Below are positions 824 through 28,920 of a DNA stretch of 64,000 nucleotides, piece by piece. Each line of letters opens with the position of its first letter. Positions within the stretch are counted from its first letter, which is position 1. This stretch comes from Candidatus Latescibacterota bacterium (GTDB taxonomy: Bacteria; Latescibacterota; UBA2968; GCA-2709665). The position numbers and the translations under genes were made by a program. The DNA is taken from NCBI GenBank assembly GCA_965219995.1, contig CBDCOX010000002.1:4608001-4672000 (forward strand). The letters are read 5' to 3'. The notes under the pieces are model-generated. The model searched no databases, had not been told where the DNA came from, and saw only the letters and a program-made list of their open reading frames with translations.

Positions 824-3214
824 CTATTCCGCCTTTCCAATGCGATAGCCAACGCGCGGCTGGTTGAATATGAAAGTTGGGGCTCGCGCGGAGTCCCCCA
901 GTTTGCGTCGGATGTTTTTAACGGCGGCGTGCAGCGGCCGTTTGTCGTCTGTATTCGACCTGCCCCAGACCTGTTTCAACAGATCCTCGTGCAGAACAGT
1001 CTGGCCGGCATAAACGGAGAGTTCCTGCAGTAGCCGATACTCAATTCTGGTCAGGATCAAGGACTCACCGGCCATTGTCACCCGGCGGCGGGCGTAGTCA
1101 ATCTTGAGATCCCCCATCATGAATGGTCTGGATGGAACGGCCGTCTCCGGCGGGAACCGTTTGCGAAGGATCGCCCGGATTCTGGCCACGAGTTCCGTAG
1201 GTGAAAAGGGTTTGACCACGTAATCTGACGCGCCGCTGTCGAAGGCTCGGGCAATCGCATCTTCGTGTCCGTAGGCCGATAGAAAGATGACTGGTACTTC
1301 AGCCTTTTCGACGATGTTCTGCATCAATTCTACGCCGTCGCTTCCCGGAAGCACGAGGTCCAGCAATACCAGTTCGGGACTGTGTTCTTCCACAAGTTTC
1401 AGTGCCTCGTTCGGGTTGCCGGTAACGACTGGAACGAAACCGGCGCTTACCAGGGCCTTCCGCACGCTACGCAGCGTCTGCGGGTCATCGTCCACGACGA
1501 GGATCTTCGTTCGGTTCTTGAATACCGCTCTTGTGAAGGCGATGGGGGCGGCCTTTCCGCCTCCTGTGCCATCTCCTCCATCATAGGCAACCGGGATCGT
1601 GAACTTGAACCGGGTTCCCGTACCCGGTCCGTCGCTTTCGGCCCAGATCCTGCCGCCGTGGGCTTCCACGATGCCTCTGCAAATTGAGAGGCCCCATCCG
1701 GCCCCTGTTTCGTATTCGAGACCGGCATCCCGCTCGCGGGGGAAGGACTTGCGAAACAGGTGCGGAATGTGCTCGGCGGGCACGCCACGACCGTGATCGG
1801 CTACGACAAACTCGACGTGTCCGCTCTCTTTTTCGGCAGAAACCCGAATTGGTGAATTCTCCGGCGAATTCTGTGCGGCGTTCGTGAGTAAGTTGACCAG
1901 TACCTGTACGACGCGCCCCGGGTCGGCCATAACAGGGGGGAGGCCGGGCGCTGACTCGATGTGGATGCTGTCTCTGTCCCAACCACTTGAGAAGGTGTTG
2001 CGAGCCTGCTCCAGCAACCCGGTCACCGTGGCGGAAACCGGAGTTACAATCAGGGTTCCGGTCTCGATGCGAGCCACGTCCACCAGATCGTTAATCAGTA
2101 CCCCCATATTGTCGGCCTGCTCTTCAATGATGCGCAAGAACTGGGCCACCTCGGCCGGACGAAACGGGAAGGGTTCGCTCAAGGCCGTTGCCGTCGAACC
2201 CTTGATTGCAGCCAGCGGCGCCCGCAGTTCGTGGGTTACCATTGCCAGGAACTCTGCGCGCAGCCGATCCAGTTCTTCCATATGCGTCATGTCCTGCAGA
2301 GTCACGACATAGGACGCTATGCCACCGCCAACCGACTTGATCGGGGTGGCGTTCATCAGGGCGGTCAAACCGCGGCCCTCCGGTGCCAGGATGACGACCT
2401 CCTCGGCTCGTACCGTCTCGCCTCTGCTCAGAGCTTCAACGACAGAGAGTTTTTGTAACGTGATTTCGCTCCCATCCGCCCGCCTGAGAGTCAGGATCTT
2501 CAGTGCCTTCCGCGGGGACCGCGTCTCGACGCCCAGGTATTTGACAAGTCTGCACATCTCCCGGTTGAACGAGACCAACTTTCCCGTCGTGGCGTTCCAG
2601 ACCACAACGCCCACCGGCGACGTGTCGATCAGGGCTTCGAGGTCGGCCCTGGCGCGCTGTTCCTCCTGGTGACGCCTGGCGTTCGCAATCACCAGCGCCG
2701 CCTGGGAGGCGAACATGCCCAGCGTCTCTTCGTCTTCCGGCGTGAACGCCTTGCTTCCTTCCTTCTCGGCCAGAAACAACGTCCCCACCCGCTCTCCCCC
2801 GTGGTGGATCGGCGCCACCAGAAACGTCAATTTCGGACTCACCGGCATTGGAGGACGAAATTCAGGCAGGCCCAGGCGCTCTATGTGGACGTGCAAGTCT
2901 CGTAACCGTAAAGGTTCGTCCAGGAAGGCGAAATATTCGAAGAGCGCCTCGTTCTCCGGAAGGCGCCAGATCCGCCGCGTCTGATTGGGCGTCATGCCGG
3001 AGGACATGCAGTTCTGTACCCGCCTCCCATCATCCAACAACGTCAACATACCGTACTTCGCGTCTGTCAACGATCGGGCGCCGTCCAGGACGCCCTGCAG
3101 TACCGCCTTGATGTCAAGGCTTTCGTTGATGCGCGTGAATGCGTTGCCCATGCGGCAGAGGCGCTCCTGCAAATGTCTGTTCTCTGCCTGAAGCCTCTCT
3201 GTCTTTCGCATCAT
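824..3214 (-). CDS. Hybrid cytoplasmic sensor kinase-response regulator (GAF-PAS-HisKA-HATPase-REC-OmpR/PhoB wHTH)
   Basis: GAF (FTPEDEETLGMFASQAALVIANAR), H-box THELRAPLAAIKG, N/G boxes (NLLTNA, DHGRG, GAGWGLSIC, GTGTRF), REC (ILVVDDD, LLDLVLPGSDG, DYVVKPF), wHTH (LTRIEYRLL...IRRKLGD...VGYRI); no obvious TM segment; start moved to ATG 3214 behind an AGGAG RBS (ORF track starts at 3322). Confidence 0.9.
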   Translation of the reverse strand: MMRKTERLQAENRHLQERLCRMGNAFTRINESLDIKAVLQGVLDGARSLTDAKYGMLTLLDDGRRVQNCMSSGMTPNQTRRIWRLPENEALFEYFAFLDEPLRLRDLHVHIERLGLPEFRPPMPVSPKLTFLVAPIHHGGERVGTLFLAEKEGSKAFTPEDEETLGMFASQAALVIANARRHQEEQRARADLEALIDTSPVGVVVWNATTGKLVSFNREMCRLVKYLGVETRSPRKALKILTLRRADGSEITLQKLSVVEALSRGETVRAEEVVILAPEGRGLTALMNATPIKSVGGGIASYVVTLQDMTHMEELDRLRAEFLAMVTHELRAPLAAIKGSTATALSEPFPFRPAEVAQFLRIIEEQADNMGVLINDLVDVARIETGTLIVTPVSATVTGLLEQARNTFSSGWDRDSIHIESAPGLPPVMADPGRVVQVLVNLLTNAAQNSPENSPIRVSAEKESGHVEFVVADHGRGVPAEHIPHLFRKSFPRERDAGLEYETGAGWGLSICRGIVEAHGGRIWAESDGPGTGTRFKFTIPVAYDGGDGTGGGKAAPIAFTRAVFKNRTKILVVDDDPQTLRSVRKALVSAGFVPVVTGNPNEALKLVEEHSPELVLLDLVLPGSDGVELMQNIVEKAEVPVIFLSAYGHEDAIARAFDSGASDYVVKPFSPTELVARIRAILRKRFPPETAVPSRPFMMGDLKIDYARRRVTMAGESLILTRIEYRLLQELSVYAGQTVLHEDLLKQVWGRSNTDDKRPLHAAVKNIRRKLGDSARAPTFIFNQPRVGYRIGKAE

Positions 3215-3332
3215 CCTCTCCTGTAGCACCGACCCCTTCATCCCCGTTGACTGTGTGAACGACATCGCAGGGCCGTTACGGACGTCAACCGTTGTCGTAC
3301 AGCGGCGTCTGGGAATGACCACAAAGAGATGA

Positions 3333-3420
3333 TTTTCAGAATAAAATCATCGAATGCGAACATGAATTCAGTGTAAATTCATTATTTTTACTTATATTAG
3401 AGAGAAAATTTATTATACAT
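3333..3420 (+). promoter_or_regulatory. Degenerate copy of the AT-rich leader core with phased TCA repeats (3336, 3347, 3368, 3379)
   Basis: Colinear with the leader cores at 3692-3780, 15120-15207 and 20329-20416 (TTTTCAG-N6-ATCATCGAA-N10-AATTCA-N8-TCAT-N8-CTTA). Confidence 0.65.
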
Positions 3421-3447
3421 AATAATTCTTAAACATACAAGTGTCAA
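3419..3447 (-). promoter_or_regulatory. sigma70-like promoter of the hybrid regulator gene
   Basis: Minus strand TTGACA-17 nt-TATTAT; the -35 lies inside the palindrome CAAGTG-N7-CACTTG. Confidence 0.65.
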
Positions 3448-3528
3448 ATGCACTTGCGCGGCGGCGACCATCGACACAGCAAGTCGGGGCGACGCCGGAC
3501 CCTCCTTCCCACTATCGACCCCGCTCTG

Positions 3529-3855
3529 CGAATTCCTGTTCCCTGTCTCACGCATCCAAATCGGTAACGTCAACCTCTCCTCTCGCGCCAGCCCTCGCGT
3601 CCCTTACGACGGTGTGAAACACGAACTGAAAGCGGCAGGTAGATCGATCCGTGTTGGCCGGTCCTGTCCCGGTTGGCTCCGGATTGGGTCGTTATCAGCG
3701 AAATATCATCGAAGACGAGGGGAAATTCATTAATAAATCATAAGTATAACTTAATATAGAAATGCTTTTTTATTATATTTATTGCTCCGATGCCGATCCT
3801 CGTGGAACAGGGTCGGCTGCCGCGACGCAGATGAAGTGTCCTGGAGGACCGGACG
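3529..3855 (+). repeat. Conserved leader/promoter cassette, copy 1 (diverged; lacks the middle block)
   Basis: 3529-3782 aligns with about 14955-15210; 3791-3855 aligns with 15347-15410; TTAATA-17-TATATT at 3751-3779. Confidence 0.8.
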
Positions 3856-3878
3856 TGCCGGTGAGGAGGTAGTCTGCA

Positions 3879-6800
3879 ATGCTGTTTGGATTTCGAGCAA
3901 GGCCGGTTGTTTCGAACAACCCGACACGTAGCGAGTCGCCGCGAATCCCGCACGAGACGGCCATGGCAGCCATCGTATTCCTGGCGTCTTTTCTTGCGGC
4001 TTCCCAGGTGCGGGCGCAGTCGCAGGCCATTACGCTGTCTGAGACATCCCTGAGCGTTGACGAATCGAACAGTGCGACGTACACCGTAAAGCTGGCCACG
4101 CAGCCCACCGGTGACGTGACCGTTACCATCACCGGAACGTCGGGGACCGACCTCGATCTGGACAAGACCAGCCTGACGTTCACGACGTCGACATGGAGCA
4201 CCGTACAGACCGTGAGGGTAACCGCCGATGGGGATACTGACGCGACGGACGATTTCGTGACGCTGGCCCATACGGCGTCCGGAGCGGACTACGCTTCCGT
4301 AACGAAAGAACTGCCCGTTACGGTGGAGGACATTACCAACGTCACCCTGACGGTAACCGGGCTCGATTTGCTTTCGATGTCAGAATACACCGACGACACC
4401 AGGACCATATCGGCGCGCCTGAGCAGGTCGCTCAGCGACGACGTCACGTTGACGGTTACCGCGTCTCCAGATGATGCAACCACGACTTCCGGCGACTATA
4501 CTCTCAGCCCGGATCCGGCGGAAATCACGATTTCGGCGGGAGACTCCCTTACGAGCGATGAGGTGGTTTTCACGGCCGTCGACGACTTCAATGACCGGCA
4601 TAAGAATGTTCAATTGACGCTGACGGTGGACAACGCGCGGGTGACGGTGTCCGGCGGGACGACGAGGGATATCTTCATCCGGAGCGACGACCTCGCTTCG
4701 ATCAGTCTGGAACTGGCGCCGGATCCGATATTCGAGAACGGCAGAGCAAGCAGAGTGACGGCGACGATGGCTTATTCCGACCGGGTTAAAGAGCAGGTGA
4801 CGCTGACGATTTCGGCCGAGGCGGCCTCGTCGACCGTAGCCGGGGACTTCACGCTCACGGGAGGGCCGCTGACGTTCGCGCCCGGCGCACATACCAGTCA
4901 GGGCACGGTAATGATCGCGGCCAACGACGATGCGGACATGGATGATGAGACGGTTACGGTTACGGGCAAAGTCACCGGAGGGCGGAGCGTGATAGAGCCC
5001 GAGCCACTTACCTTGAATATTGTCGATGACGACGAAACCGGCCTCGTGACGATGTCATTGCGGCTGACGCCGGAACGGATCCGGGAGTCCGGCGGGTTCA
5101 ATGTCAGTACGGTCACCGCGGAGGTAAGCCGGCCGTTGACGCAGCCGGCGACCGTAACGGTTTCCGCGTCACCGAATCCGGAGAACGCGGAAACGACCGC
5201 CGATGACTATGCGCTAAGTACGAACCTTGAACTCCTGATTGCCGCGGGGGAAACCGAGAGTAAGGGCAGGGTGACCCTTACGGCGGTGGACAATTCACTG
5301 TACGAGGGTACGCATAAGAGTGTATTGGTTACGGGAACGGTGACAGGCAACGCGGGGGTGGCGGCTCCCCCACAACGTGAATTGACGATTTTGGAGGACG
5401 ATGTCAAGGCGACCGTGCAATTGATAGCGACGCCGCAAACAATCGATGAAGACGGAGGCGTCAGCACGATCACGGCGGTGTCGCATTTGCCGATGCCTGA
5501 AACCGTGACTTTCGACGTGAGGGTGTCTGGTTCCGCGGTAACGCTAAGCGACAATGTAACTCTCACGTTGGCCCAGGGAGAGACGAACAGTACGGGGACC
5601 GTAACGGTAACGGCGGGAGATATTTCCGGTACAAATCATACGAGTGTGTCCATCAGTCGACAGAACCTCAGTTCGTCCTCGTTTACCGTAAAGACAACTC
5701 GTATACTCGTCATCGACGACGATTATACGGGCTCTCAGTTGTGGATGAGGTTGTCGCCCGGCGACATGGTTGAGGGCCAGAACCAGGTCAGCACGGTGTC
5801 CGCGTACCTTACCCAGGCGTTGTCGGAGAACGTGACCGTAACGGTCGCTATCGACGAAGACTACACATCGGCGTTTCCCGATGAATACACGTTGAGCACA
5901 AATCGGACGTTAACGATATCGGCCGGGGATACGACAAGCACCGGAACGGTGACGCTTACGTCCGTGGACAACGATTACTATAGCGCCAGGCATGGCTACA
6001 GAGTCGGGTACACGTACGAGGTAACCGGTCCCGCTGGTTTGCAAACCAGGAAATTACAGGATAGCTGGAGTATCCGCGAGGATGAGTCTCCGACCGTAGT
6101 GACGCTGGTCTTGACCCCGGATGCAATTGACGAGAACGGCGGGGAATCTACTGTAACCGCCGAACTCAACTCCGCGGTGCGAAGTAACCTCACATTGACC
6201 GTGCTGGCGGATGGGTCCGGGGACGTCACCCAGAACGGAACGACGCTTACGATTGCCGAGGGATCAAAAACGAGCACCGGAACGGTAACCCTGACGGCCG
6301 TGGACAACGCCATGGACGCGCTGGATAAATTCGTCCGGGTCCGGGGTTCGCTGACCGTTGCCGAGGATCTGCCGTTTTCGATCGTGTTTCCCTACGGCCG
6401 GCAGTTGACGATCACGGACGATGATGAGGCAGACCTGGTCCTGTCCACCGCGTCGCTGACGGTTACGGAGGGCGCGGACCCCGGAGGGACCTACACGGTG
6501 AAGCTGGCCACCGAGCCCACCTCCGACGTGTCGGTGAGCATCGGCCTTCCGTCCGGTACGGATGTCTCGGTCAATCCATCCAGCCTGACGTTCACCCCGA
6601 CGACGTGGAACACGGAGCGGACCGTGACGGTATCCGCGGCTCACGACGACGACGCGAGCAATGACAGCGCGACGCTGACACACATGGCCACCGGCGGCGG
6701 CTACGGGTCCGTCAGCAAGGACGTCTCGGTTACGGTGAACGAGGACGACGAGCCGGCCCTCGTGTTGTCCGGGACGTCGCTGACGGTGGCGGAGGGGGCG

Positions 6801-9800
6801 GATCCAGGCGAAACCTACACGGTGAAACTCGACACGAAGCCGACCGCGAGCGTGACGGTGACGATCGGGGGTACGGCAGATACCGACCTCACGCCGGACA
6901 AGACGAGCCTGACGTTCAGCACCACCAACTGGAACGTGGAGCAGACTGTGACGGTATCCGCCGCCGAGGACGACGACGCGGTCGACGACAGCGCGACGCT
7001 GACGCACACGGCGTCCGGGGGCGACTATGGGTCGGTGAGCAAGGACCTTCCCGTGACCGTGACGGACGACGACGAGGCGGAAATCGTGCTGTCGCCCACC
7101 TCGCTGGGCGTGGTCGAAAACCAGGACGCGGCGTACGAGGTGAAGCTGGCCACGAAACCAACCGCAACGGTTACGGTGAGCATTACCGGTCACACGGGGA
7201 CGGACCTGACGCCGGACAAGACGAGCCTGACGTTCAGCACCACCAACTGGAACACGGAGCAGACCGTGACCGTGTCCGCGGGTGACGATTCCGACGCCGC
7301 AGCGGACGAAGAGACCCTGACCCACACGGCCGAGGGAGGCGATTACGGGTCCGTGAGCAAGGACCTTGCGGTCACGGTAACCGACGACGACCAGGCCGGT
7401 ATCGCGATTTCACAGCCGTCGCTGGACGTTGACGAGGGCGACATTTACGCTTATACGGTTAAACTGGCCACGCAGCCCACCGCCCCGGTGACGGTGTCCA
7501 TAGGCGGTCACTCCGATACGGACCTGATTCTGGACAGGACGAGCCTGACGTTCAGTACCACGACCTGGAACACGGAGCAGACCGTGGAGGTGACGGCGGC
7601 TCACGACGACGACGCGAGCAACGACAGCGCGACCCTGACACACACGGCGTCCGGGGGCGACTATGGGTCGGTGAGCAAGGACCTTCCCGTGACTGTGACG
7701 GACGACGACGAGGTTGATATCGTGCTGTTTCCGGAGTCGCTGGACGTGCTGGAGGACGGCAGCAGTACCTATACGGTCAGGCTGGCGACGGAGCCTACCG
7801 CCGGCGTGACGGTGACCATCGGCGGTCATACGGGCACGGACCTGACGCTGGATACGACGGAGTTGACGTTCACCCCGACCGGCTGGAACGCGGCGCAGAC
7901 GGTGAGGGTGTCCGCGGGAGACGACGACGATGGCGGCAGTGAGTCCGCGACGTTGACGCATACGGCCACGGGCGGCGACTACGCGTTTGTGACGCGTGAC
8001 CTGCCGGTTACGATTACGGATGACGACGCCGCGGGCCTGGTTTTGTCGCCGTCGTCGTTGAACGTGGAAGAGGGCACCGACGTCAGCTATACGGTCAGGC
8101 TGGCGACGGAGCCAACCGACGCAGTGACGGTGACCATCGGCGGTACCTCGGGTACGGATCTGATACTGGACAGGACGAGTCTGACGTTCAGCACGTCTGC
8201 GTGGAGCACGGAGCAGACCGTGCAGGTGACCGTGGCGGCGGACGAGGACGGGCGCAATGACCTGGCGACGCTGACGCACACGGCGTCCGGGGGCGACTAT
8301 GGCTCCGTGAGCAGGGACCTTCGCGTCCTGGTGTCGGACGGCGACGACGAGGCCCTGGTGCTCTCGCGCGGTTCGCTGACTGTTGAGGAAGGCACGATGG
8401 CTACCTATACGGTCAAGCTGGCGACCATGCCTCTCGGCAACGTCGAAGTGAACGTCGCTGTAACCGGAGAGACCGACGTCTCGGTGAACCCGACGCGTCT
8501 GACGTTCACGCCGTCCGACTGGGCCACCTGGCAGACGGTGCGGGTGTCCGCGGCGCATGATGACGACGCACTCGATGACCAGGAGACGGCAACCCACTCG
8601 GCCTCCGGCGCCGGTTACGGCTCCGTGAGCAAGGCCCTGACCGTGGTGGTGGCCGACGATGACGAACCGGACCTTGTGTTTTTGCCGACGTCGTTGACAG
8701 TCGGCGAGGGCACGGACGCCACCTATAGGGTAAATCTGGCCACGGAGCCGTCCTCGGACGTGACGGTGACCATCGGCGGTGGCCGGGAGGCTGACCTCAC
8801 ACTGGAAACGAACAGCCTCACTTTTGCCAGGTGGAACTGGTATGCCGCCCAAACCGTAAAGGTGTCCGCCGGACACGATGACGACACTGTAAACGACCGG
8901 GGAACGCTGACTCACTCCGCCGCCGGGGGTGACTACGGGTCGGTGCGCAAGCGTCTTCCCGTCGTCGTAACGGACGACGATGCCGGCGGTGGTGGAGGCG
9001 GGGGCAGAGGCGGCGCCCCCGCGGCGATCGTGATATCGCCGTCGTCACTGACGGTGGATGAGGGCGCACACGCCGCCTATTCCGTGGCGTTGGCCGCACA
9101 GCCCACGTCGGACGTGACGGTGACCATCGGCGGAGCGGGGGGCACGGACCTGTCGCTCGACAGGACGGATCTGACGTTTTCCACAACGGCCTGGAATACC
9201 CCGCAGTCGGTAAGGGTGTCTGCCGCGCACGACGACGACGCGGTGAACGACACCGTGACGCTGACGCACAACGGCTCCGGCGGGGGTTACGGTTCGGTAA
9301 GCAGGGATCTTGGCGTGACCGTCAGAGACGACGACGAGGAGATCCAACAGACGGTGGAGGTGACGGTGTATTTCGATCGGGAAACCCACACCGCCGTGGA
9401 GGGCGGCAGTCCCGCGCGCGTGACGGTGCGCGTCATGCTGAACGTGGATCCCGATCGGGTTCTGACGGTCCCGCTGGCGGTAACTTTGAACGGCGGCGCC
9501 ACCGGCGACGACTACGAGGGTGTGCCGGAGGAGGTCACCTTCGGTCGCGGCGAGATGGAGAAGGCATTCCACGTCACCGCTATCGACGACGACGTGGACG
9601 ATGACGACGAGAGCCTGACCATCGGCTTCGGCGCGTTACCCGACGGTGCGCTGGCGGGCAGACCGGTCAGCACGCTGGTGCATCTGCAGGACAACGACGA
9701 CCCCGTGACGACGGTCTCGTTCGACAGATCGACGTACGAGGCGGCGGAGGGCGGGAGTCCGGCGCGCGTGACGGTTCGGGTCATGCTGAACCGGGACCCT

Positions 9801-14687: not shown

Positions 14688-14718
14688 CGTGATCCGGTTG
14701 CGCAGGGTATTCTCTCCT

Positions 14719-14910: not shown

Positions 14911-15410
14911 GTTGATGTCCTGAACCCCGCCTGCCCCTGCGGGAACGGTGCTCGCCGAAATCCTGTTTCCCTCCTGACGCTTTTTAATTTGTAGCGTCAT
15001 TCCCTTCTCCTGCGCCGGCCTTCGCGTCCCACTTGACGGTTTGAAACAAGAAGCAGATGCGGCAGGAATATCAACCCGTGTTGGCCGGTTCTCTCCCAGG
15101 TTGGCCCCGAATGGGGTCATTTTCAGCGAAATATCATCGAACACGAGTGAAAATTCATTGATATATCATAAGTTTAGCTTAACTCAAAAACACTTTTCCA
15201 TTATATTTATAACTAAGGCAGGCGATCGCCTGGTCCACTCGCGGCATCGTCCAGCGTTTCTGCAAGTCAGGACGAAGCCGGGCTTCGCCTGCGAAATTCG
15301 GGTTGGCATTGTTCAGAGACGGTAATACACGATGGCATCTTCGGGAGCCGATCCTCCTGGATCAGGGTCGGCTGCCGCGACGCAAGTGGAGTCATTTAGA
15401 GGACCGGACG
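14911..15410 (+). repeat. Conserved leader/promoter cassette, copy 2 (most complete)
   Basis: 14911-15351 is a direct repeat of 20123-20560 (roughly 90% or more identical by eye); TCA at 15123/15134/15155/15166; TTAACT-17-TATATT at 15179-15207. Confidence 0.9.
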
Positions 15411-20122: not shown

Positions 20123-20560
20123 GTTGATGTCCTGAACCCCCCGCCCTTGCGGGAACGGCGCTCGCCGAATTCCTGTTTCCCTCCTGACGCTTCTCATCGG
20201 CAGCGTCATCCCCTCCTCTTGCGCCAGCCCTCGCGTCCCACGTGACGGTTTGAAACAAGAAGCAGATGCGGCAGGAATGTCAACCCGTGTTGGCCGGTTC
20301 TCTCCCAGATTGGCCCCGAATGGGGTCATTTTCAGCGAAATATCATCGAAGACGAGTGAAAATTCATAGATATATCATAAGTTTTGCTTAACTCAAAAAC
20401 ACTTTTCCATTATATTTATAACTAAGGCAGGCGATCGCCCGATCCACTCGCGGCATCGTCCAGCGACTCTGCAAGCCAGGGCGAAGCCGGGCTTCGCCTG
20501 AGAAATTCGGTTTGTCATTGTTCAGAGACGGTAATACACGATGGCATCTTCGGGAGTCGA
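20123..20560 (+). repeat. Conserved leader/promoter cassette, copy 3
   Basis: Starts at the base after the M60 gene stop; direct repeat of 14911-15351; TCA at 20332/20343/20364/20375; TTAACT-17-TATATT at 20388-20416. Confidence 0.9.
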
Positions 20561-20611
20561 CCCACATAAGGCTTTCCGGCCCCGCCGGCAACAAACGAAA
20601 GGCGACAGGGA

Positions 20612-23392
20612 ATGAGAACAAGACCCGTCCGATTGCACGTACGTGTCGTTTTGGCCGCCATTGTGATCTGGCTGAACAGCCTCTATAACCCCCAAAAGAG
20701 TCTCGCCGGCCACGAGGCTACCATGACCGGGATGAGCGTGGTCTCCGAACCCGCACCGGCGCCGTTTGTGGAGCGCAACCCCGATGACCCCGACGGCGAC
20801 ATCTACCACGTAGGGCAAACCATCAGGATCTCGGCCACTTTCAGCCAGAGATTGAGGGTGAGCGGCCAGGTCACCATGGACGTCACCATCGGGGACTCTG
20901 TGAGGACCGCGACGTACCATCGCGGTTCCGGAACAAACATTCTGGTGTTCAAGTACGAGGTGATCCCGACCGACGCGGACACCGACGGGATCAGCGTGCC
21001 CGCCGCCGATTGGGGCGGCAGCGGCTCGGTCCGGACCACGCACTCCAACTTGGATGCTGAATTCACGCCCCTGGGGCTCGGCACTCAGTCGGATCACAAG
21101 GTGGACGGGAGTCTGGGGCCCTGGGTCACAGGTGTGGTAATAGCCTCCACGCCTGCCTCCGGCAGCACCTACCGGTACGGGGAGAACGTCTGGGTCGACG
21201 TGAAGTTCAGCGGTCCGGTCCGGGTCGAGAGCGACAATCGACCATACCTTGCTTACAACTACCAGGATGCGGACGGGGAAACGAGGCAGAAGAGAGCCGG
21301 GTACAAAAGTGGAAGCGGAACCAATACGCTGCGATTGTCATTTCCGGTGGAATCCAACTTCAAAGACGACGACGGGCCCAGCATCCTGTCCGCCTACGTT
21401 GATGCCGCGGGCTCATCGGAACGCAGGGTCTGGGCACTGGACCACGACGTGAGGGCGCCCTGGCGAATGAAAGGGATCGAAGCGGGGACCGACCACAAGA
21501 TGAACGGGGAGCCGTACGTAAAGAGCGTTGCCATCACCTCCACTCCGGAACAGGGGAAGACCTATCGGCGCGCCGAGGTCATCCGGATCACGGCCACCTT
21601 CGACCAGAAGGTCACGGTGGAGGGGACCCTGAATAAAGGCTTGAGGTTCACCTATGGAGACAATGAGTACACCAACCGGCGCGCCGGATACGCCTCGGGC
21701 TCCGGCACCCGGGCCCTGGTCTTCGAATACACTGTCAGGAGGCAGGACAAAGACCCTGACGGTCTGAGCATCCTCCACAGCAACAACAACGGCTGGGGCG
21801 GCGGTGGGAAGATCTGGTCGGCCCTCGCAACGGGACAGGCCTCGGGCACGCAGGTGCAGGCCGACCGCAGCCACGGCGAGACAGTAGACGCGACAAACCA
21901 CAAGGTGAACGGGGAACTGGACCCCATACGCCCCGCCATCTCGTCGATCGAGATCGTAACCGATCCCGACACCCTCGGCACGTACACCGCCGGCGAGTGG
22001 ATCGGCGTCAGGGCGACCTTCCACAAGAACGTGGTCGTCACCGGCACGCCGCAGCTCGAGCTGAGCATGGGGGCAGAGACGAAGAACGCCCTGTTCGGGC
22101 AGGGCTCGTTCGAGGGGAGTGTCCGCCCCGGGAACAGGAACCCGGGCCCGAATGTGTTCTTCGGCTACCGGGTACAGGAGGGTGATATCGATACGTCCGG
22201 CATCGCCATCGGAAAGAACAAGCTCAGCCTCAACGGCGGCGCCATCAACAACGCGGCCGATTCCAGCAATACCGCGGACCTTGACCACGATGCCCTGGCC
22301 GCCGATGCCGGCCAGAAGGTTGATGCGGTCGCCCCGGCCGTCTCGTCCATCGCCATCAGTTCGGATGCGGGGGAGGATGCCTACTACGCCGTCGGCGACA
22401 GCATCGAGGTGACGGTGACCTTCACGGAGGAGATCACGGTCACCGGGGCGCCTCGATTGGGGCTGGCCGTCGGCAGCAACGCCAGGTCGGCCGTCTACCG
22501 CGCCGCCGAAGGCCCGGCGTCGGTTCTCACCTACGTCGTGCAGGAGGGGGACAGCGACGGGAACGGAATCTCCATCGAGGCGGACACGCTCAGCCTCAAC
22601 GGCGGCGCCATCGGGGACCTGATCGGCAACGCGGCCAGCCTGGACCACGACGCAGTAGCCGCCGACGCGGACCACAAGGTCGACGGGGTGTACCCGACCC
22701 TGACGGACGCAGTCAGCTTCACCCAGGGCACGTATATCAATCTGAACTTCAGTGAGAGAATCACCGTTCCGTCGATTCTGCGCACGATCAGCAGCTTCGT
22801 GAATGTCGAGCTCGACCGGTTCTACATCGCCGTCCTCTCGGTCAAGATGGGGGACGAACTCGTGAAGCCACGTTCCGCTACCCTCACGGGCTCCCGACTG
22901 CGTCTGAACCTCGCGGCGCCGCTGATCGCGGGCCAGCGGACGTGGGTATCCTACGACAACATCTTTGCCCGCGATGCGGCGGGGCTCTTCATCGACCGGG
23001 CCGGCAACCCCCTGGCCAACTTCAGCAACACCTGGGTAATAAATCAGTCGGATGTTGCAGACGGGGAATCGGACGTGGGAGAATTGGAGTTGAGCCTGAC
23101 CGAGCTCACGGTCACCGAAGGGGAATCCGCATCCTACACGGTGGCCCTGGAATCCCGGCCTTCCGCAGACGTGACCGTTGCGACGTCGAGCTCGTCCACG
23201 AAGCTTTCGGTCAGCCCGGCAAGCCTCACCTTCACCGCGCAAAATTGGGACACGGCGCAGACGGTGACGCTTACCGCCGGCCACGATGACGACGAGCTCA
23301 ACTACTGGGTGAGCGTGACCAGCACGGGCAGCGGAGGAGGCTACGAAGGCTCGGAGAAGTGGGTGCTTGTGGTCATCGAGGACGACGACTGA
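20612..23392 (+). CDS. Secreted Ig-like repeat surface protein with a SwmB-like domain and one terminal autotransporter-type repeat
   Basis: About five repeats Y..G..I.V...F...V.V.G.P.L......R.A.Y..GSGT..L.F.Y.V...D.D.DG; SwmB-like segment (INLNFSE..LRLNLAAPL.AGQ..VSY..DRAGNPLANF); the last ~105 aa match the repeat unit of 3879-12509. Confidence 0.7.
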   Translation: MRTRPVRLHVRVVLAAIVIWLNSLYNPQKSLAGHEATMTGMSVVSEPAPAPFVERNPDDPDGDIYHVGQTIRISATFSQRLRVSGQVTMDVTIGDSVRTATYHRGSGTNILVFKYEVIPTDADTDGISVPAADWGGSGSVRTTHSNLDAEFTPLGLGTQSDHKVDGSLGPWVTGVVIASTPASGSTYRYGENVWVDVKFSGPVRVESDNRPYLAYNYQDADGETRQKRAGYKSGSGTNTLRLSFPVESNFKDDDGPSILSAYVDAAGSSERRVWALDHDVRAPWRMKGIEAGTDHKMNGEPYVKSVAITSTPEQGKTYRRAEVIRITATFDQKVTVEGTLNKGLRFTYGDNEYTNRRAGYASGSGTRALVFEYTVRRQDKDPDGLSILHSNNNGWGGGGKIWSALATGQASGTQVQADRSHGETVDATNHKVNGELDPIRPAISSIEIVTDPDTLGTYTAGEWIGVRATFHKNVVVTGTPQLELSMGAETKNALFGQGSFEGSVRPGNRNPGPNVFFGYRVQEGDIDTSGIAIGKNKLSLNGGAINNAADSSNTADLDHDALAADAGQKVDAVAPAVSSIAISSDAGEDAYYAVGDSIEVTVTFTEEITVTGAPRLGLAVGSNARSAVYRAAEGPASVLTYVVQEGDSDGNGISIEADTLSLNGGAIGDLIGNAASLDHDAVAADADHKVDGVYPTLTDAVSFTQGTYINLNFSERITVPSILRTISSFVNVELDRFYIAVLSVKMGDELVKPRSATLTGSRLRLNLAAPLIAGQRTWVSYDNIFARDAAGLFIDRAGNPLANFSNTWVINQSDVADGESDVGELELSLTELTVTEGESASYTVALESRPSADVTVATSSSSTKLSVSPASLTFTAQNWDTAQTVTLTAGHDDDELNYWVSVTSTGSGGGYEGSEKWVLVVIEDDD

Positions 23393-23459
23393 GAGGATTG
23401 TTCAGAAGCAGTGTACACAGACGTATCACCTGAGCGACTCGATGGATTGAGGCTGTAAG

Positions 23460-24707
23460 ATGAAACGACTGTCTTGTGTTCTTGCCGTGATGTTTTCCCT
23501 TTTCCCGCGAGCCGCCGCCGGCGCGCAGCCGCCGCTGGATACGTGGGAACTGGTGGAAAACAGTCTGACGTTCAACATCGGGGCGATCATCGTCCAGGGT
23601 GAAGGGGAGGATCCCGTTCCCTCGTCACCCTACGTCACCCTGGAGCTGTATCGGGGCAACGCCTACAGGTTGTCCATCGGCGCCCGCGCGGCGGTCGGGT
23701 ACGCGTTTCCGCGTTTCCTGCCGGAACCGCCGGGGCACGCGGCGCCTTCCACACGGGCTACGGGTGGGCATGGATATTATACGGTGCATTCCGATACGCT
23801 GCGTTTCACTACCCATTTCGTGAGTCTGATTGCTGACGGCGTGGACCTGGGAGACGTCGTAAGGCAGTCCGACGATGCGAGGATTCAGAGAGAGTACACG
23901 CTGGCGCTTTCCCTGGTAAATGCGGCCTTCCTGGAACTCTTCAACGACCTGTACGCGTACCGGTCCGGCGACAGGCTGGTCTTCGTGCTGCCCGGCGACA
24001 GCGACTTCGCCGTCGCGGCGGAAGGTTCCGGGGACCGGATCGTGTGGGCGCTTCGGCGGGTGGGAGGTCCCCCGTCCACGTCGCGTACGGCGGTAAGGGC
24101 CACGGTGATCGGGGGTGCGGCGGAAGCGCTGACGCTGGAGTTCGCGCGTTCGATTTCGGGGCGTGCCGTGTACTATGCCTGGCGCACGACCACCGACCGT
24201 GACGGCAGGGCGGACCTCGATATCGTCACGCTGGACCGGGTGGGCGTCACCGGCTACTACAGCGCCCGCGCCCGCAACGGGGAGGGCGAGGTCGTGGGGC
24301 GGTGGAACAGCATTCCCCTGAATGAAAACCGTCGCCAGGTCCTGGAATTGACGCTGCGCGGCAGCGCGCGGGTGGTGTCGAGTCTCGCGATACACGCGGC
24401 AAAGACGGCCGTGCTTCCGGTAGAGCAGGCTGTCGCGGGGCTGGCCCCCAACTTTCCCAACCCATTCAACAGCAGCACGCTGATCGCGTACCGGCTTGCC
24501 GCCCCGGGCGTGGTTCGGCTGGAGATCTTCAATTCGCTGGGGCAGCGCGTGCGGACGCTGGTGGACGACACCCGGGCTGCCGGGCGCTACGTTGTGCAGT
24601 GGAATGCCCGTGATGGACGGGGCGAAGAGGTGGCCGCCGGCGTCTATGTGATGCGCCTGTTGCATCCCGGCGGCGTGGACGCCCGGCGCATGCTGTATCT
24701 GAAATAG
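23460..24707 (+). CDS. Secreted protein: unknown N-terminal domain + shared ~95-aa module + FlgD_Ig/T9SS-CTD-like domain
   Basis: Signal peptide; GYY.ARARN..G.VVGRW.SIPLN...RQ.LELTL module shared with 12825-14687; PNFPNPFNS CTD ending in LYLK. Confidence 0.75.
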   Translation: MKRLSCVLAVMFSLFPRAAAGAQPPLDTWELVENSLTFNIGAIIVQGEGEDPVPSSPYVTLELYRGNAYRLSIGARAAVGYAFPRFLPEPPGHAAPSTRATGGHGYYTVHSDTLRFTTHFVSLIADGVDLGDVVRQSDDARIQREYTLALSLVNAAFLELFNDLYAYRSGDRLVFVLPGDSDFAVAAEGSGDRIVWALRRVGGPPSTSRTAVRATVIGGAAEALTLEFARSISGRAVYYAWRTTTDRDGRADLDIVTLDRVGVTGYYSARARNGEGEVVGRWNSIPLNENRRQVLELTLRGSARVVSSLAIHAAKTAVLPVEQAVAGLAPNFPNPFNSSTLIAYRLAAPGVVRLEIFNSLGQRVRTLVDDTRAAGRYVVQWNARDGRGEEVAAGVYVMRLLHPGGVDARRMLYLK

Positions 24708-24783
24708 CGTGCCTGAACTACATAACTTTGCACACGGAATACGCGCGGTTGCATCACCTGACCCCTACAAGGAGGCATTCTAA

Positions 24784-25542
24784 ATGAAACTTGCATTGTC
24801 ATTGGTTATCGCCTGGTTCATCGGTTCGGCATTCCCGGTTGCGGCGGAACAGGCGCCGTTCGAGGGCCAGGTCGTGAATCCGAAGTCGCTTCCGGTCCAT
24901 GGGGCCCGGATCGAGCTCTACCGGCTCGACGATCCCACTGCGAGGGTAACGACACTGACCGACGAAAGCGGCGCCTTCTCGCTGCCCTTGAGAGACATCG
25001 CACCGCCGCGGGAGAACGAACTCATGCAGAATCATCCCAATCCGTTCAATCCCTCTACGCTCATTCCCTTCGAAATCTCGGAGGGGGGCCACGTTCGTCT
25101 GGACGTCTTCAACATTCTCGGGCAGCGCGTGGTCACCCTGATCGACGAGGAGCGTCCCGCCGGATTTCACAGGGTGCAGTGGGACGGCGCCGATGCCGTC
25201 GGTCGGGGCGTGGCGGCGGGCGTATACATCTACCGGCTCAGCACCGGCAACTGGCACGATGCGCGGAAACTGATGCTGCTCGACGGCGCGTCGCGACGTC
25301 CTGGCGGCGGGGCGGAGCGTCTCCCGCAAGAAGCAGGGGGGAATACGTACGGCGTGAAGATTTCCGGCGAGGAGATTCTGCCGGAGAGCTTTACCTGGCG
25401 TCCGGGATCGGGGCCCCTGTTTGCGGAAGTGAAGAGCCTTGAAGACGTCCTTCCGCCCGAGATCAAGAACGCCGATACCGCGACCAATCCCTTCTCGGGA
25501 ACCAGCCTCGCCTCCATCATCCAGGTCGTTTCCGGGCGTTGA
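24784..25542 (+). CDS. Secreted protein with a carboxypeptidase-regulatory-like N-terminal domain containing an internal FlgD_Ig-like domain; probably C-terminally truncated
   Basis: AAGGAGG RBS; signal peptide; GQVV...PV.GA.I.L...TLTDESGAFSL; QNHPNPFNPST..VFNILGQRV.TL..WDG.D..G..VAAGVYIYRL. Confidence 0.7.
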   Translation: MKLALSLVIAWFIGSAFPVAAEQAPFEGQVVNPKSLPVHGARIELYRLDDPTARVTTLTDESGAFSLPLRDIAPPRENELMQNHPNPFNPSTLIPFEISEGGHVRLDVFNILGQRVVTLIDEERPAGFHRVQWDGADAVGRGVAAGVYIYRLSTGNWHDARKLMLLDGASRRPGGGAERLPQEAGGNTYGVKISGEEILPESFTWRPGSGPLFAEVKSLEDVLPPEIKNADTATNPFSGTSLASIIQVVSGR

Positions 25543-25584
25543 TATGTGCTGAATCGGCCATCAAGCAGGCCCGAACCCGGGTCT

Positions 25585-25705
25585 TAAGCACGGCGCCGCA
25601 CCCACCTCCACAACCACCTTCTCCACCGTTGCCGTAGACCCCTGCCCCCACGGTGACCTGGACTGCGCCGATGAACGATGCCGGACCGGCCGTCACCGGC
25701 TTCCG
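25585..25705 (+). pseudogene. Gene debris: Pro-rich linker and the start of an FN3 domain (VTWTAPMNDAGPAVTGF)
   Basis: Translation of 25653-25703 resembles an FN3 N-terminal strand; preceded by a Pro-rich stretch ending in a stop. Confidence 0.5.
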
Positions 25706-25819
25706 ATCTCCCTCAATGATCATCTGTCAGCACTCCGTTGCGTTCCGGTCAGGGACCGACGCAACCTTCTTGCGCAGGTCTGCAGAACGATCTCGCCGAG
25801 AATTCTTATCGTCTGACCA

Positions 25820-25907
25820 TAAAATCACGATAAAGTCACTATAACGTGGTGCTGAAGTCACTAAAAAGACATATTAATATTGTATATTGTCATGATAATG
25901 ATACAAT
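25820..25907 (+). promoter_or_regulatory. AT-rich promoter region with phased TCA repeats (25825, 25836, 25858; ACA at 25869)
   Basis: Offsets 0/+11/+33/+44, nearly the same as the leader cores; candidate -10 GATAAT or TACAAT. Confidence 0.5.
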
Positions 25908-25925
25908 AAATGCGGCTCATGGTAA

Positions 25926-26084
25926 ATGCGATTCAACCAGAAACTCGGGCTGAGGTCGGCGGACGCGGACTTCGACCCGCGTATGGACCTGGACAGCGAC
26001 GGCGCCATCGGGTTTTCGGACTTCCTCATGTTCTGGTTCTGGTTGCCGATTCTCTTTCTCACGAATCTGCATTGTTATCAATGA
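25926..26084 (+). pseudogene. Orphan second half of a dockerin-like EF-hand pair (52-aa ORF, not in the ORF track)
   Basis: MRFNQKLGLRSADADFDPRMDLDSDGAIGFSDFLMF... matches the second half of the dockerin-like module of 15488-20122 (FGLSQGDEGYDGRYDLDGNGAIGFSDF). Confidence 0.7.
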
Positions 26085-26100
26085 TGCACGCGGAGTTTTC

Positions 26101-26721
26101 ATGACTCGCAGCATCAAATCGTTCGGCCGCCTGCCTGGTGTTGCAGGCCTGGTTTTCCTGGCGATGTTCATTACTACCTCGTCGCTTCCGACTCAGTCCA
26201 GCCGCTTTTCGCTCTCTCTGGATCTGGATGAAGCCGCTGGCGACCAGGCCGTCTCCTCGCTCGATGTGCTGCCAGATCAGCCAGTCTCCATACAGATCTT
26301 CGGCAGGGAGATCAAGGGCGCCACCGGCATGTCCGCGCGCTTGCGTTTCGATGCCGCCCAGGTCGCATACGTGGGATTCGACCCGGGCGACGCACTGCCG
26401 AATGCGTACGTCGTCGAGCAGCGGGATACCACGTCCATCGCCATCGACGTTTCTTCCCTGAGCGGATCGGTAACGGAGAACGCAGGCCTTGTAGGCACCG
26501 TGCGTCTTCGCACCACCGCGGCCTTCTCGGACACGGAGGTCTGGCTGGTGCAGGCTGAGCTTAGGCGGGACGGCCGTTCCGAAGCGGGATCCGGGGCGGT
26601 GTGGGTTCTTCTGGATGCGCCTTCTCCTCCGTCACCGGACTTCAATGGAAGCGGTGTCGTAGATTTCGCCGATGGACGAGGACGGCAAGCCACCCGTAAG
26701 TGGGTACGAGGTGGGGCATAA
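26101..26721 (+). pseudogene. Signal peptide + cohesin-like domain + first half of a dockerin-like motif; truncated by an out-of-frame junction
   Basis: Beta-rich domain (VSIQIFG..I.GATG...LRFDAAQV.Y.GF...GLVGTV.LRT), then PSPDFNGSGVVDFAD breaks off into unrelated sequence at about 26672. Confidence 0.6.
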
Positions 26722-28501
26722 GGAGGAAGAAGCCGGGATATGGCCCGATGGGCTGCTGGTGGCAGGCCGCGCGGATACCAGCGTTACCATTACGGGTCTG
26801 ACCAACGATCAGAGGTATCACGTGCGCGTGCGAACGGTGAACGACGAGGGGGGCAGTCCGTGGTCGGCGCCGGTCGGCGGGGTGCCCGCGATGGGCCCCG
26901 GACCGCGCGGCGAGTTGCGCGACCAGACGGCGCTCATCGGCCGCGACTTGGAAATAAGCCTCGCCAGCCTGTTCACTCGGCCCGCGCGGGGGACGTGGAC
27001 CTATGACGCGACGTCGTCCAACGAGGGGGTGGCCACGGTCACAGTGTCGGATACACTGGCGGTCGTACGCGGCGTTGCTGCAGGACGCACGACCATCACC
27101 GCCACGGCAGCCAACGCGTATGGGAACAGCGCCAAGACTACCTTCGACGTCGTGGTCACGACACCCCCTGACCCGCCGCCAACTCCCCCGCCTCCGCCTC
27201 CTCCGCCACGACAACCGCCACCTCCCCCCCGGCCGCCACCTACGGCCATTGTCGTTGTCTGCGGCCGTACCGCACAGGTCCGTGATGCGATCGTGGCGGC
27301 GGCTGGAGTAACCGATTGCGCAGCGGTCACAGCCGTTCAACTGTCGGCAATATCAGAACTTCGTCTGAGTGACAAGAACATCTCAACATTGACGGCGAGC
27401 GATTTTTCCAACCTGACATCCGTGAAGAAACTCCATCTGGTCGATAATAACCTCGAGACCCTGGCTACGGATCTTTTCGACGAACTGACAGCGTTGGAAG
27501 AACTCTATCTGGGACGCAACCGGCTCACGACGTTACCAGAGAATCTCTTTGCCAATGTGTCAACGTTAAGGAAAATCAGTCTGCGTGAGAACATCATCAG
27601 CACGCTGCCGGCGAACCTCTTTTCCAATCCGTCACCGCTGAAAGAGCTCTATCTGACGCACAACGACCTTACGAGTGTGAATGGGGCGACATTTTCCGGC
27701 CTGGCCGCGCTGGAGAAACTCGCGCTAAATCAGAACAACCTCCATACGGGATCTTTCCCGGCGGGCTTTTTCGCGGGCCTGCCTGCGCTGAAATCACTCT
27801 GGCTGAGCGGCAATCGCTTTCCCGGCCTTACAGCGGACTTCTTCTCGAGCCTGACCGGGCTGGAGGAGCTTTATCTGCCAGGTGTCGGCCTTACCACGCT
27901 GCCGGCGAATCTCCTCTCGAATCTGGTCTCGCTCGAAGTTCTCAGCCTGTCACACAATGAATTGTCCAGCGTGAGTGCAACAGCTTTCTCCGGGCTGACA
28001 TCACTTGAAGAACTTTGGGTTGACTTCTCCGAACTTGAGTCAGACGATCTTCCGTCAGGAGTTTTTTCAAGCCTGTCATCGCTGCGATTTCTGTCACTCA
28101 GGGGTAACGGGCTGCAGAGCCTGCCGGCGGGGGTGTTTTCAGGGCTGACCGCTCTGACAAGACTTGACCTTACCGACAATCCGACTGACCCCTTGCCCAT
28201 TGCGATATCACTGGAACGGGTGGCCACCGGTCAATTCAAGGCCATGGCGCACACAGGTGCGCCATTTGATATGACGCTTCCACTCCAGGTGGTCAACGGT
28301 ACGATCAGCGGCGGTGCAACCAGCATTTTTATTCCCCGTGGTGGACCGGAAAGCGACGTACTCACCGTGAACCGCACCACTGGAACGACCGCTGCCGTGA
28401 CAGTCGACATCGCCTCGTTGCCGTCGCCGCCGTCGAACTACACGGGTCTGACACTGGTCAAGTCCGCCGATTTGCCGCTGCAGGTTATCGCGGCGGAATG
28501 A
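26672..28501 (+). CDS. FN3 (N-truncated) + Ig-like + Pro-rich linker + 24-aa LRR array protein; 3' part of the disrupted gene
   Basis: FN3 remnant (GYEV...TITGLTN...YHVRVRTVN.EG.SPWS), Cys cap VCGRTAQVRDAIV...C..VT, about 11-12 repeats of LxxLxLxxNxLxxLPxxxFxxL; no signal peptide of its own. Confidence 0.8.
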   Translation: MDEDGKPPVSGYEVGHKEEEAGIWPDGLLVAGRADTSVTITGLTNDQRYHVRVRTVNDEGGSPWSAPVGGVPAMGPGPRGELRDQTALIGRDLEISLASLFTRPARGTWTYDATSSNEGVATVTVSDTLAVVRGVAAGRTTITATAANAYGNSAKTTFDVVVTTPPDPPPTPPPPPPPPRQPPPPPRPPPTAIVVVCGRTAQVRDAIVAAAGVTDCAAVTAVQLSAISELRLSDKNISTLTASDFSNLTSVKKLHLVDNNLETLATDLFDELTALEELYLGRNRLTTLPENLFANVSTLRKISLRENIISTLPANLFSNPSPLKELYLTHNDLTSVNGATFSGLAALEKLALNQNNLHTGSFPAGFFAGLPALKSLWLSGNRFPGLTADFFSSLTGLEELYLPGVGLTTLPANLLSNLVSLEVLSLSHNELSSVSATAFSGLTSLEELWVDFSELESDDLPSGVFSSLSSLRFLSLRGNGLQSLPAGVFSGLTALTRLDLTDNPTDPLPIAISLERVATGQFKAMAHTGAPFDMTLPLQVVNGTISGGATSIFIPRGGPESDVLTVNRTTGTTAAVTVDIASLPSPPSNYTGLTLVKSADLPLQVIAAE

Positions 28502-28571
28502 AGGCTTGCCATGCCGCGAATTGCCAGTTCGCGGTACCTCTTCGCCCTCCACGCGAAGGACCGGTCTGAAG

Positions 28572-28596
28572 GTGGGGCGGACATTCCTGTCTGCCC
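28572..28596 (+). repeat. REP-like palindrome family GTGGGGCAGACATTCCTGTCTGCCC
   Basis: Copies at about 14871-14890, 28572-28596, 31016-31039 (-), 31895-31919 (-), 48801-48825 and 49253-49276; all intergenic. Confidence 0.8.
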
Positions 28597-28715
28597 GCGT
28601 CGATGCCGGCGAAGTCTCCGCGCACATGTGTTTGCCGCACTAAAACGTCAGTGACAATCGTGAAGACGGGAGAATCTTCGCTGCGCTCAGAATGACATGC
28701 TGGGCGATGACCATT

Positions 28716-28868
28716 GACCGGGCCGTCTCCTCGCTCGACCTCCTGCCAGATCAGCCACTCACCATACAGGTCTTCGGTACGGATATCCAGAATGCGGAGG
28801 GTATTTCCGTCCGTTTGCGTTTCGACGAATCCCGGGTCGCGTACGAGGGATTCGATCCGGGCGACGCA
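28716..28868 (+). pseudogene. 153-bp duplicated fragment of the cohesin-like domain
   Basis: Colinear with 26242-26394 (DRAVSSLDLLPDQPLTIQVFG...FDPGDA). Confidence 0.8.
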
Positions 28869-28920
28869 ATAGAGACAGGCTCACCAACCTGACGATACTC
28901 ATCCCCTCGTGCCCTTCCGG

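Follow-up and report, generated by a model that had tools for sequence, protein, structure and literature searches.

Does a soluble single-chain two-component regulator control the surface-protein genes that lie beside it, and through which DNA sites would it act? The question is raised by a 64,000-nt stretch of the genome of Candidatus Latescibacterota bacterium (assembly GCA_965219995.1, contig CBDCOX010000002.1, positions 4,608,001 to 4,672,000), hereafter called the window. Here, the gene of a fused regulator diverges from a long array of genes for secreted proteins, and four copies of an AT-rich module lie upstream of the regulator and of three operons of the array. Our tentative answer, to which we give a probability of about 0.4, is that the modules form part of a locally copied promoter-operator cassette of the OmpR/PhoB type, which would most likely be bound by the neighbouring regulator and induce the three surface-protein operons.

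The window has a GC content of 62% and contains only eight strongly AT-rich islands, four of which are copies of one module (Table 1). Each copy carries the pattern TCA-N8-TCA-N18-TCA-N8-TCA, i.e. TCA at offsets 0/+11/+32/+43. On both strands of the 64-kb window, this pattern has exactly four matches (3336, 3695, 15123, and 20332), all on the plus strand, against none expected and with no match in any of 100 shuffles. A stricter 24-base core recovers the same four sites, even if three mismatches are allowed. An earlier interpretation made from the nucleotides alone (the sequence-only reading) had listed these four regions with their shared offsets, and both coordinates and offsets are correct. 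Their independence, by contrast, does not hold: three of the copies are duplicates, leaving roughly two independent observations.

The copies at 3695, 15123, and 20332 sit within one duplicated intergenic cassette of ~0.35-0.45 kb. Segments 14982-15281 and 20191-20490 are 93% identical, while 3523-3688 and 3668-3782 match their counterparts with 66-82% identity, and the three-way alignment begins ~170 nt before the boxes and reaches into the leaders. Since the three sites lie inside this long duplicated segment, their identical offsets were inherited by descent and do not represent independent events. The copy at 3336 has only the AT-rich module (~100 nt) in common with the others and is, judged by these alignments, the sole separate, diverged, and informative copy.

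Each module comprises a pair of 22-nt boxes, with a distance of 32 nt (~three helical turns) from one start to the next. Within each box, the half-sites WWTTCAK and ATCAT form a tandem direct repeat with 11-nt spacing (ATTTTCAG..AATATCATCGA and AAATTCAT..TATATCATAAG; half-site cores TTTTCAG, ATATCAT, and AATTCAT). A matrix built from six of the eight boxes, without those of copy 3, which nearly duplicate copy 2, scores all eight at 28.6-33.7 bits. The next matches, at 17.3 and 16.4 bits, overlap with boxes of these modules in a shifted phase, and no further box is found in the window outside the four modules, where all scores are ≤12.5 bits. Further, box A and box B within each copy agree at 10-14 of 23 positions, compared to ~7 expected for that composition, and none of the four copies has lost this internal repeat. 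An 11-bp unit of direct repeats is a site geometry documented for the OmpR/PhoB family in the available part of one source (PMC4415409), and head-to-tail or direct-repeat binding is described for the family in the available parts of two others (PMC4832192, PMC3264566). The proposal of two dimer boxes per promoter agrees with this geometry, as four direct half-sites with an 11-bp period lie on one DNA face; its second half, that the adjacent regulator occupies them, is conjectural.

The boxes are also the best-preserved part of the cassette. Between copies 1 and 2, 40 of 44 box positions are identical, compared to 230 of 312 in all other alignable segments, namely the GC-rich element upstream of the module (125/168), the inter-box spacer (7/10), the -35 to -10 region (25/35), and the leader (73/99). 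A one-sided Fisher test on this difference gives p=0.007, with segments picked after seeing the data. The boxes of copy 4 retain 32 of 46 identities to copy 1 and 34 of 46 to copy 2, and its inter-box spacer has drifted to chance level against both (4/11). Together, these comparisons point, modestly but consistently, to selection on the boxes themselves.

In copies 1 to 3, the boxes are followed by a promoter-like sequence. The motif TTAAYW-N17-TATATT has three matches in the window, ending at 3779, 15207, and 20416, whereas none is expected. Consensus-type promoters (TTGAC-N17-19-TAWWWT) occur at four sites versus 0.11 expected (Table 1), and sigma-70-type promoters, commonly with TATATT as their -10, appear to be in use in this genome. 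Judged by their hexamers, the three operon promoters combine this usual -10 with a poor -35 (TTAAYW for TTGAC), as expected of activator-dependent promoters. The sequence-only reading had pointed to exactly this combination, a poor -35 placed 17 nt from the same -10 as upstream of lepA, and the counts bear it out. If transcription starts ~7 nt past the -10, as we assume, the box centres lie near -84 and -52, the TCA cores at about -91, -80, -59, and -48, and box B spans from about -63 to -42. OmpR sites at ompF and ompC abut the -35, and the Pho box replaces it; the module layout resembles the OmpR sites more.

Directly upstream of these three modules lies a GC-rich, non-coding element of ~170 nt with 74-92% identity between copies. 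No reading frame is conserved over its three copies, which differ in stops and frame shifts. Nor does the element have an Rfam match at gathering threshold or a significant folding z-score (+0.49, -1.36, and -0.71). A 7-bp GC hairpin closes the element in copies 2 and 3; the TTTT behind it overlaps with the first half-site, and the two together might serve as a weak terminator of the preceding gene. On the downstream side, the leaders of the adhesin gene and the M60 peptidase gene (3792-3817 and 15348-15373) have in common a 9-bp hairpin, GCCGATCCT...AGGGTCGGC, along with ~70 nt of conserved sequence. The copy 3 leader diverges at the point of this hairpin, and an extra leader insert of ~130 nt (15215-15345) is common to copies 2 and 3 and absent from copy 1.

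Which protein could read such boxes? Pfam assigns GAF, PAS, HisKA, HATPase_c, Response_reg (E=4.8e-27), and Trans_reg_C (PF00486, 55 bits at a cutoff of 26.2) to the divergent gene, whose product has no transmembrane-like segment (top 19-residue hydropathy mean 1.29). The description of a fused GAF-PAS-kinase-receiver protein with a winged helix-turn-helix (wHTH) domain and no obvious membrane anchor is therefore accurate. Most likely, translation starts at ATG 3211 (795 aa) and not at GTG 3322 of the longest open reading frame (ORF; 832 aa), because homologue lengths are almost all 795 aa: among the best 120 homologues listed, 119 measure 759-828 aa and most exactly 795 aa. This start lengthens the divergent intergenic region to 667 nt. 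According to precomputed Pfam annotation, all 120 contain HisKA, HATPase_c, Response_reg, and Trans_reg_C; their identities range from 55 to 98%, and one of them is named Gemmatimonadota. By these matches, the regulator is a member of a large conserved family.

The catalytic and phosphoacceptor positions are intact. The H-box histidine (HELRAPL), the receiver aspartate, and the conserved lysine are invariant in 21 aligned family members, and the translation shows the N, G1, and G2 motifs of the kinase. With HisKA including the H-box histidine, HATPase_c, and a receiver in one chain, the protein is a hybrid histidine kinase; its receiver with aspartate and lysine and its C-terminal Trans_reg_C wHTH also place it in the OmpR/PhoB family. 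The receiver-wHTH part is closest to MtrA (E=1.4e-37), followed by BaeR, KdpE, PrrA, RpaA, and RegX3. The matches to MtrA, BaeR, and KdpE are full-length, and the receiver aligns with that of MtrA through LVLLDL and KPF. A Pfam scan of 34 window ORFs (11 + 23) reveals no other DNA-binding domain, and by domain content and position the neighbouring protein is the best candidate binder.

The sensory part offers a hint to the type of input. The GAF domain (residues 33-183, window ~2663-3115 on the minus strand) aligns over its full length with GAF-A of DevS (E=2.4e-20) and with the chain in 2vzw (E=3.4e-13), which we take to be DosT. The histidine of DevS 'PPYHPPM', presumably the haem ligand His149, corresponds to arginine in the regulator (PEFRPPM) and to R, H, or Q over the family. 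DevS-like haem binding is unlikely on the basis of this alignment. Another GAF histidine (residue 109) is invariant in the family. A protein-atlas search for the regulator returned generic hybrid-kinase clusters only, and no description of the family was found in the literature, as covered by titles and the first parts of abstracts outside subscription journals.

Copy 4 places the boxes in a peculiar position at the regulator's own gene. It lies between the near-consensus promoter of the regulator and the start codon, with its boxes 125 nt upstream of that codon, in plus orientation, and pointing away from the regulator. Given the predicted minus-strand start at ~3412, the boxes fall at about +32 to +77 of the regulator leader DNA. 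Rightward hexamers can be read as TTTACT-18-TATTAT (3387-3416) or, in register with the other copies, as TTATAT-16-TATACA. They overlap the -10 region of the regulator, and two divergent promoters would consequently compete for RNA polymerase. Self-activation, as implied by the statement of the sequence-only reading that the regulator 'would autoregulate', is unlikely, as the regulator has its own TTGACA-17-TATTAT promoter, downstream of which the boxes are placed in the opposite orientation. Autoregulation would be negative rather than positive.

Taken together, the favoured reading, a copied cassette bound by the neighbouring regulator, would operate as follows. On sensing a signal from the cytoplasm, the soluble regulator would phosphorylate its own receiver domain. 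In the phosphorylated state, this OmpR/PhoB-type protein would bind each box as a head-to-tail dimer and recruit RNA polymerase, thereby co-inducing three operons: the adhesin (perhaps together with the 625-aa gene), the M60-WD40 peptidase, and the genes for the 926-, 415-, and 252-aa proteins. Occupancy of copy 4 would fire a second, distal rightward promoter towards the adhesin. At the same time, it would hinder transcription of the regulator, either as a roadblock or via competition of the overlapping divergent promoters, resulting in negative feedback. A more far-reaching version, which we regard as speculative and rather doubtful, envisages a conserved Gemmatimonadota family of soluble single-chain regulators, in which a DevS-like GAF domain minus the haem histidine is joined to kinase, receiver, and OmpR-type wHTH. 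Such regulators would directly switch on a proteome of surface proteins and of cargo of the type IX secretion system (T9SS) through a portable cassette that spreads by duplication before unrelated surface genes, self-limited by divergent-promoter competition.

Several observations weigh against regulation by the neighbour. Adjacency and geometry are what connects the boxes to this protein. Several positions of its recognition helix deviate from MtrA and PhoB, and homology can thus not reveal the half-site specificity. Moreover, a probable in-genome paralogue, P0023, is 60% identical, has the 795-aa architecture, and carries the identical recognition helix DKRPLHAAVKNIRRKL; hence, the binder cannot be identified by adjacency alone. 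Across many assemblies, members of the regulator family share 55-70% identity, a degree of conservation that suits a core regulator no less than one dedicated to fast-evolving surface genes. As three of the four copies are by alignment paralogous duplicates, most of the 'exact offsets' signal is inherited, and the comparisons of the copy 4 boxes taken alone are not significant (p=0.11 and 0.055). For promoter hexamers and start sites, the evidence consists of consensus matches. Finally, the operator is not seen in relatives: an exact search of 185,579 species genomes for an 18-base core of the box, using a pattern that demanded spacer bases that need not be conserved and a collection evidently without the genome of the window, yielded 101 single chance-like or coding matches. 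An upstream TCA accompanies two of these 101 and a downstream TCA none, and none of the 80 titled records is named Gemmatimonadota.

Two rival explanations share much of the evidence with the neighbour-bound cassette. The boxes may be a real OmpR/PhoB-type operator that is read by another response regulator, either P0023 or an unrelated member of the family whose gene lies outside the window, with the neighbour being incidental or only partly relevant. This we consider unlikely. The 60% identity of P0023 with its 795-aa architecture and identical helix speaks for it, as does the impression that the regulator family is a conserved core family, and genomes of such size usually encode many OmpR-family regulators. 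On the other hand, one module lies directly beside the regulator gene, local autoregulatory sites are common for the OmpR/PhoB family, and no second DNA-binding protein is found among the 34 ORFs scanned in the window. Alternatively, no dedicated factor may exist, and the AT-rich modules would be strong promoter cassettes whose upstream phased A/T-rich sequence acts as an UP element, curved DNA, or a target of a nucleoid protein, the TCA phasing having been passed on by duplication or gene conversion. The three copies are plainly duplicates with 74-93% identity for hundreds of bases beyond the boxes, eight strongly AT-rich islands are unusual in themselves at 62% GC, and UP elements lie at about the position of box B (-63 to -42). 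Yet a mere AT-rich tract does not readily account for the stronger conservation of the boxes relative to the flanks and the -35/-10 region (40/44 versus 230/312), for copy 4 keeping its boxes while its spacer drifts to chance (4/11), or for the box A/box B repeat persisting in all four copies. We judge this explanation improbable.

The remaining alternatives agree less well with the modules. Conservation that extends ~170 nt upstream and 70-130 nt downstream, and the 9-bp hairpin common to the leaders of copies 1 and 2, could reflect an RNA-level cassette in which the GC-rich element and the leaders act as cis-regulatory RNA, small RNA, or antitermination signal for very long operons, making the DNA boxes secondary. 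The GC-rich part is, however, less conserved than the boxes (125/168 versus 40/44), copy 4 retains the AT-rich module only, none of seven folded segments has a significant z-score (+0.49 to -1.38), and Rfam gives no match at gathering threshold, which renders this very unlikely. Even more remote is the idea of ordinary Pho boxes bound by the PhoB of the cell. The Pho box consists of two units of 11 nt with a conserved core of 7 nt, whose consensus is CTGTCAT; the modules have the TCA core in common with it, but their half-sites read WWTTCAK and ATCAT. The boxes also end 10 nt upstream of the -35-like hexamer instead of replacing it; an adhesin, an M60 peptidase, and T9SS cargo, and no phosphate-acquisition gene, lie downstream; and the one Pho-type gene of the window, encoding PhoX (58477-59844), has no box nearby. 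The 11-bp direct-repeat period is a likeness to the Pho box, as described in the accessible part of PMC4415409, and speaks for this idea. Finally, a repeated intergenic segment that precedes successive unrelated genes in one orientation might mark the boundaries of a mobile or recombining element, such as an invertible promoter, integron-like cassette sites, or a miniature inverted-repeat transposable element. This is scarcely credible, as the four regions examined lack consistent inverted repeats flanking the modules, the scanned ORFs contain no recombinase or integrase domain, and integron cassettes are typically far smaller than the genes of the array. One form of it, an invertible phase-variable promoter, does not agree with the missing flanking inverted repeats in these four regions.

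A further AT-rich island at 25825 had been counted as a fifth member of the box family in the sequence-only reading, and this assignment has to be abandoned. On the box matrix, the island scores 12.5 and 10.1 bits, below the 99.9th percentile of AT-rich random sequence (13.6 bits) and far from the 28.6-33.7 bits of the true boxes. Its three-TCA pattern occurs twice in the window versus 0.30 expected, the other match being inside a gene, and its half-site is AARTCAC, not WWTTCAK/ATCAT. The low score and the different half-site exclude it from the family; possibly, it serves as the operator of another regulator. Following TGTATATT, a 52-aa ORF starts at 25927 (within 25821-26085) and encodes a DxDxDG motif, dockerin/EF-hand-like, as well as a hydrophobic tail. 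The M60-WD40 protein and a 206-aa ORF likewise end in this motif.

Table 1. Positions of the modules, predicted promoters, and genes in the window
Feature	Position	Strand	Description
Regulator gene	824..3211	-	Soluble fused two-component regulator, 795 aa; GAF, PAS, HisKA, HATPase_c, REC, OmpR-type wHTH
Module copy 4	3332..3432	+	Box A 3332-3353, box B 3364-3385; degenerate rightward promoter follows
Consensus-type promoter of regulator	3447-3419	-	TTGACA-17-TATTAT, 11/12 consensus positions; predicted transcription start ~3412
GC-rich conserved non-coding element upstream of module	3523..3690	+	Repeat family D6 and alignment; counterparts 14950-15118, 20159-20327
Module copy 1	3691..3779	+	Box A 3691-3712, box B 3723-3744, -35 TTAATA 3751-3756, -10 TATATT 3774-3779
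Giant repeat adhesin-like protein, 2876 aa	3879..12509	+	Calx-beta, fn3_6, ten ~318-nt repeats; behind copy 1
Secreted protein, 625 aa	12810..14687	+	T9SS type A sorting domain
Module copy 2	15119..15207	+	Box A 15119-15140, box B 15151-15172, promoter TTAACT-17-TATATT 15179-15207
M60 (enhancin-like) peptidase with WD40 propellers, 1544 aa	15488..20122	+	PF13402 E=5.3e-74, WD40; behind copy 2
Module copy 3	20328..20416	+	Box A 20328-20349, box B 20360-20381, promoter TTAACT-17-TATATT 20388-20416
Three closely spaced genes, 926, 415, and 252 aa	20612..25542	+	Last two with T9SS type A sorting domain; behind copy 3
Fifth AT-rich island	25821..25920	+	Own repeat AARTCAC at 25824, 25835, 25857, then TGTATATT
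Two overlapping ORFs, 26101-26721 and 26672-28501	26101..28501	+	fn3 and LRR domains; downstream of fifth island
Consensus-type promoter upstream of lepA	46139-46111		TTGACT-17-TATATT
Consensus-type promoter upstream of oxidoreductase gene	46235-46264		TTGAC-N17-19-TAWWWT match
Consensus-type promoter match	61226-61198		TTGAC-N17-19-TAWWWT match

The sequence-only reading characterized the genes behind the modules as ~25 kb of co-oriented genes for secreted proteins with adhesin, mucin-type peptidase, and LRR/WD40 content, which our analysis confirms. All ORFs taken as genes from 3879 to 28501 lie on the plus strand, and seven of the eight inspected by eye possess a signal-like hydrophobic N-terminal segment. 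Pfam confirms the M60 peptidase, WD40, LRR, and Calx-beta domains, and a T9SS type A sorting domain scores above cutoff in three array proteins. The 625-aa gene has no module upstream and may be co-transcribed with the adhesin. An adhesin paralogue, P0124 (3532 aa, 56% identical), appears to be encoded in the same genome as the window. The two ORFs downstream of the fifth island are in different frames, and the second begins in the middle of an fn3 domain and lacks a signal peptide; judged by these features, a single gene disrupted through a frameshift or an error of assembly is the probable origin of both. As these fn3/LRR genes lie behind the fifth island, the evidence does not place them in the regulon. 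A fragment without an intact ORF (28716-28868) is 80% identical to 26242-26394.

Outside the array, a very large surface-type protein of 1576 aa with FG-GAP, NHL, and ASPIC/UnbV domains is encoded at 32548-37278 (minus strand) and has no box module. Two 238-nt direct repeats (48855-49092 and 49308-49545), 99% identical and 453 nt apart, occupy an 890-nt stretch without a long ORF and match no tRNA or Rfam entry. Copies of a duplicated nucleotidyltransferase/HEPN gene (57611-58882 and 59845-60531, 77-84% DNA identity) flank the gene of the alkaline phosphatase PhoX, which lies on the minus strand.

How does this locus compare to known systems? The operators of OmpR/PhoB proteins such as the E. 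coli Pho box and the sites of M. tuberculosis PhoP and KdpE are similar in that they consist of 11-bp direct repeats with two half-sites per dimer, can include more than one dimer site per promoter, and serve activator-dependent promoters, as far as the accessible parts of the sources describe them (PMC4415409, PMC4832192, PMC3264566). In contrast, the boxes described here are 32 bp apart and not contiguous at 22 bp, use the half-site WWTTCAK/ATCAT, lie upstream of the -35-like hexamer, and precede genes for surface proteins rather than phosphate or potassium functions. TorR bound to distal tor boxes represses its own divergent gene. This OmpR-family protein is also similar in having four boxes in the divergent torR-torCAD region, with the consensus CTGTTCATAT and its TTCAT core given in the available portion of PMC9239176; only the TTCAT core of this decamer recurs here, with ~5 of 10 positions matching. 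However, TorR is a separate protein that works with the membrane kinase TorS, whereas the present locus encodes one soluble chain and repeats its cassette at three operons.

The hybrid two-component systems (HTCS) of Bacteroides have a periplasmic sugar sensor and an AraC-type output. They resemble the regulator in uniting kinase, receiver, and DNA-binding output in one polypeptide and in regulating adjacent loci with surface or secreted functions (PMC11253607, PMC13292587, both as far as available). They differ in being membrane-spanning, as stated in the accessible part of PMC13292587, while the regulator has no transmembrane segment and a GAF and PAS sensor. Its output is likewise different, with Trans_reg_C and no AraC family among ten Pfam hits. 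DevS/DosS and DosT are haem-GAF sensor kinases with which the N-terminal GAF domain of the regulator aligns end to end, but the position of the haem-ligand histidine of DevS is arginine here. The partner of DevS is a separate NarL-type regulator.

The designation as an 'undescribed system' is consequently too strong: fusions of kinase, receiver, and DNA-binding domain are known from Bacteroides HTCS (PMC11253607, available part), and the regulator is one of a large conserved family. None of the parts is of a new kind, as tandem 11-bp repeats (PMC4415409) and single-chain regulators (PMC11253607) are described in the portions of these sources that are accessible. What is unusual is the soluble GAF-PAS and OmpR-type version of the fusion, and one promoter-operator cassette spread before three unrelated surface-protein operons.

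To our knowledge, almost no gene regulation has been studied in this phylum. If the link between regulator and boxes fails, the locus would be an ordinary case of duplicated promoters. If the link is true, a whole signalling pathway would be contained in one locus, with sensor, kinase, receiver, and DNA binder in one chain beside a readable operator. It would govern a small, defined regulon of an adhesin, a mucin-type peptidase, and T9SS cargo, and this regulon would have grown by copying a promoter-operator cassette before unrelated genes.

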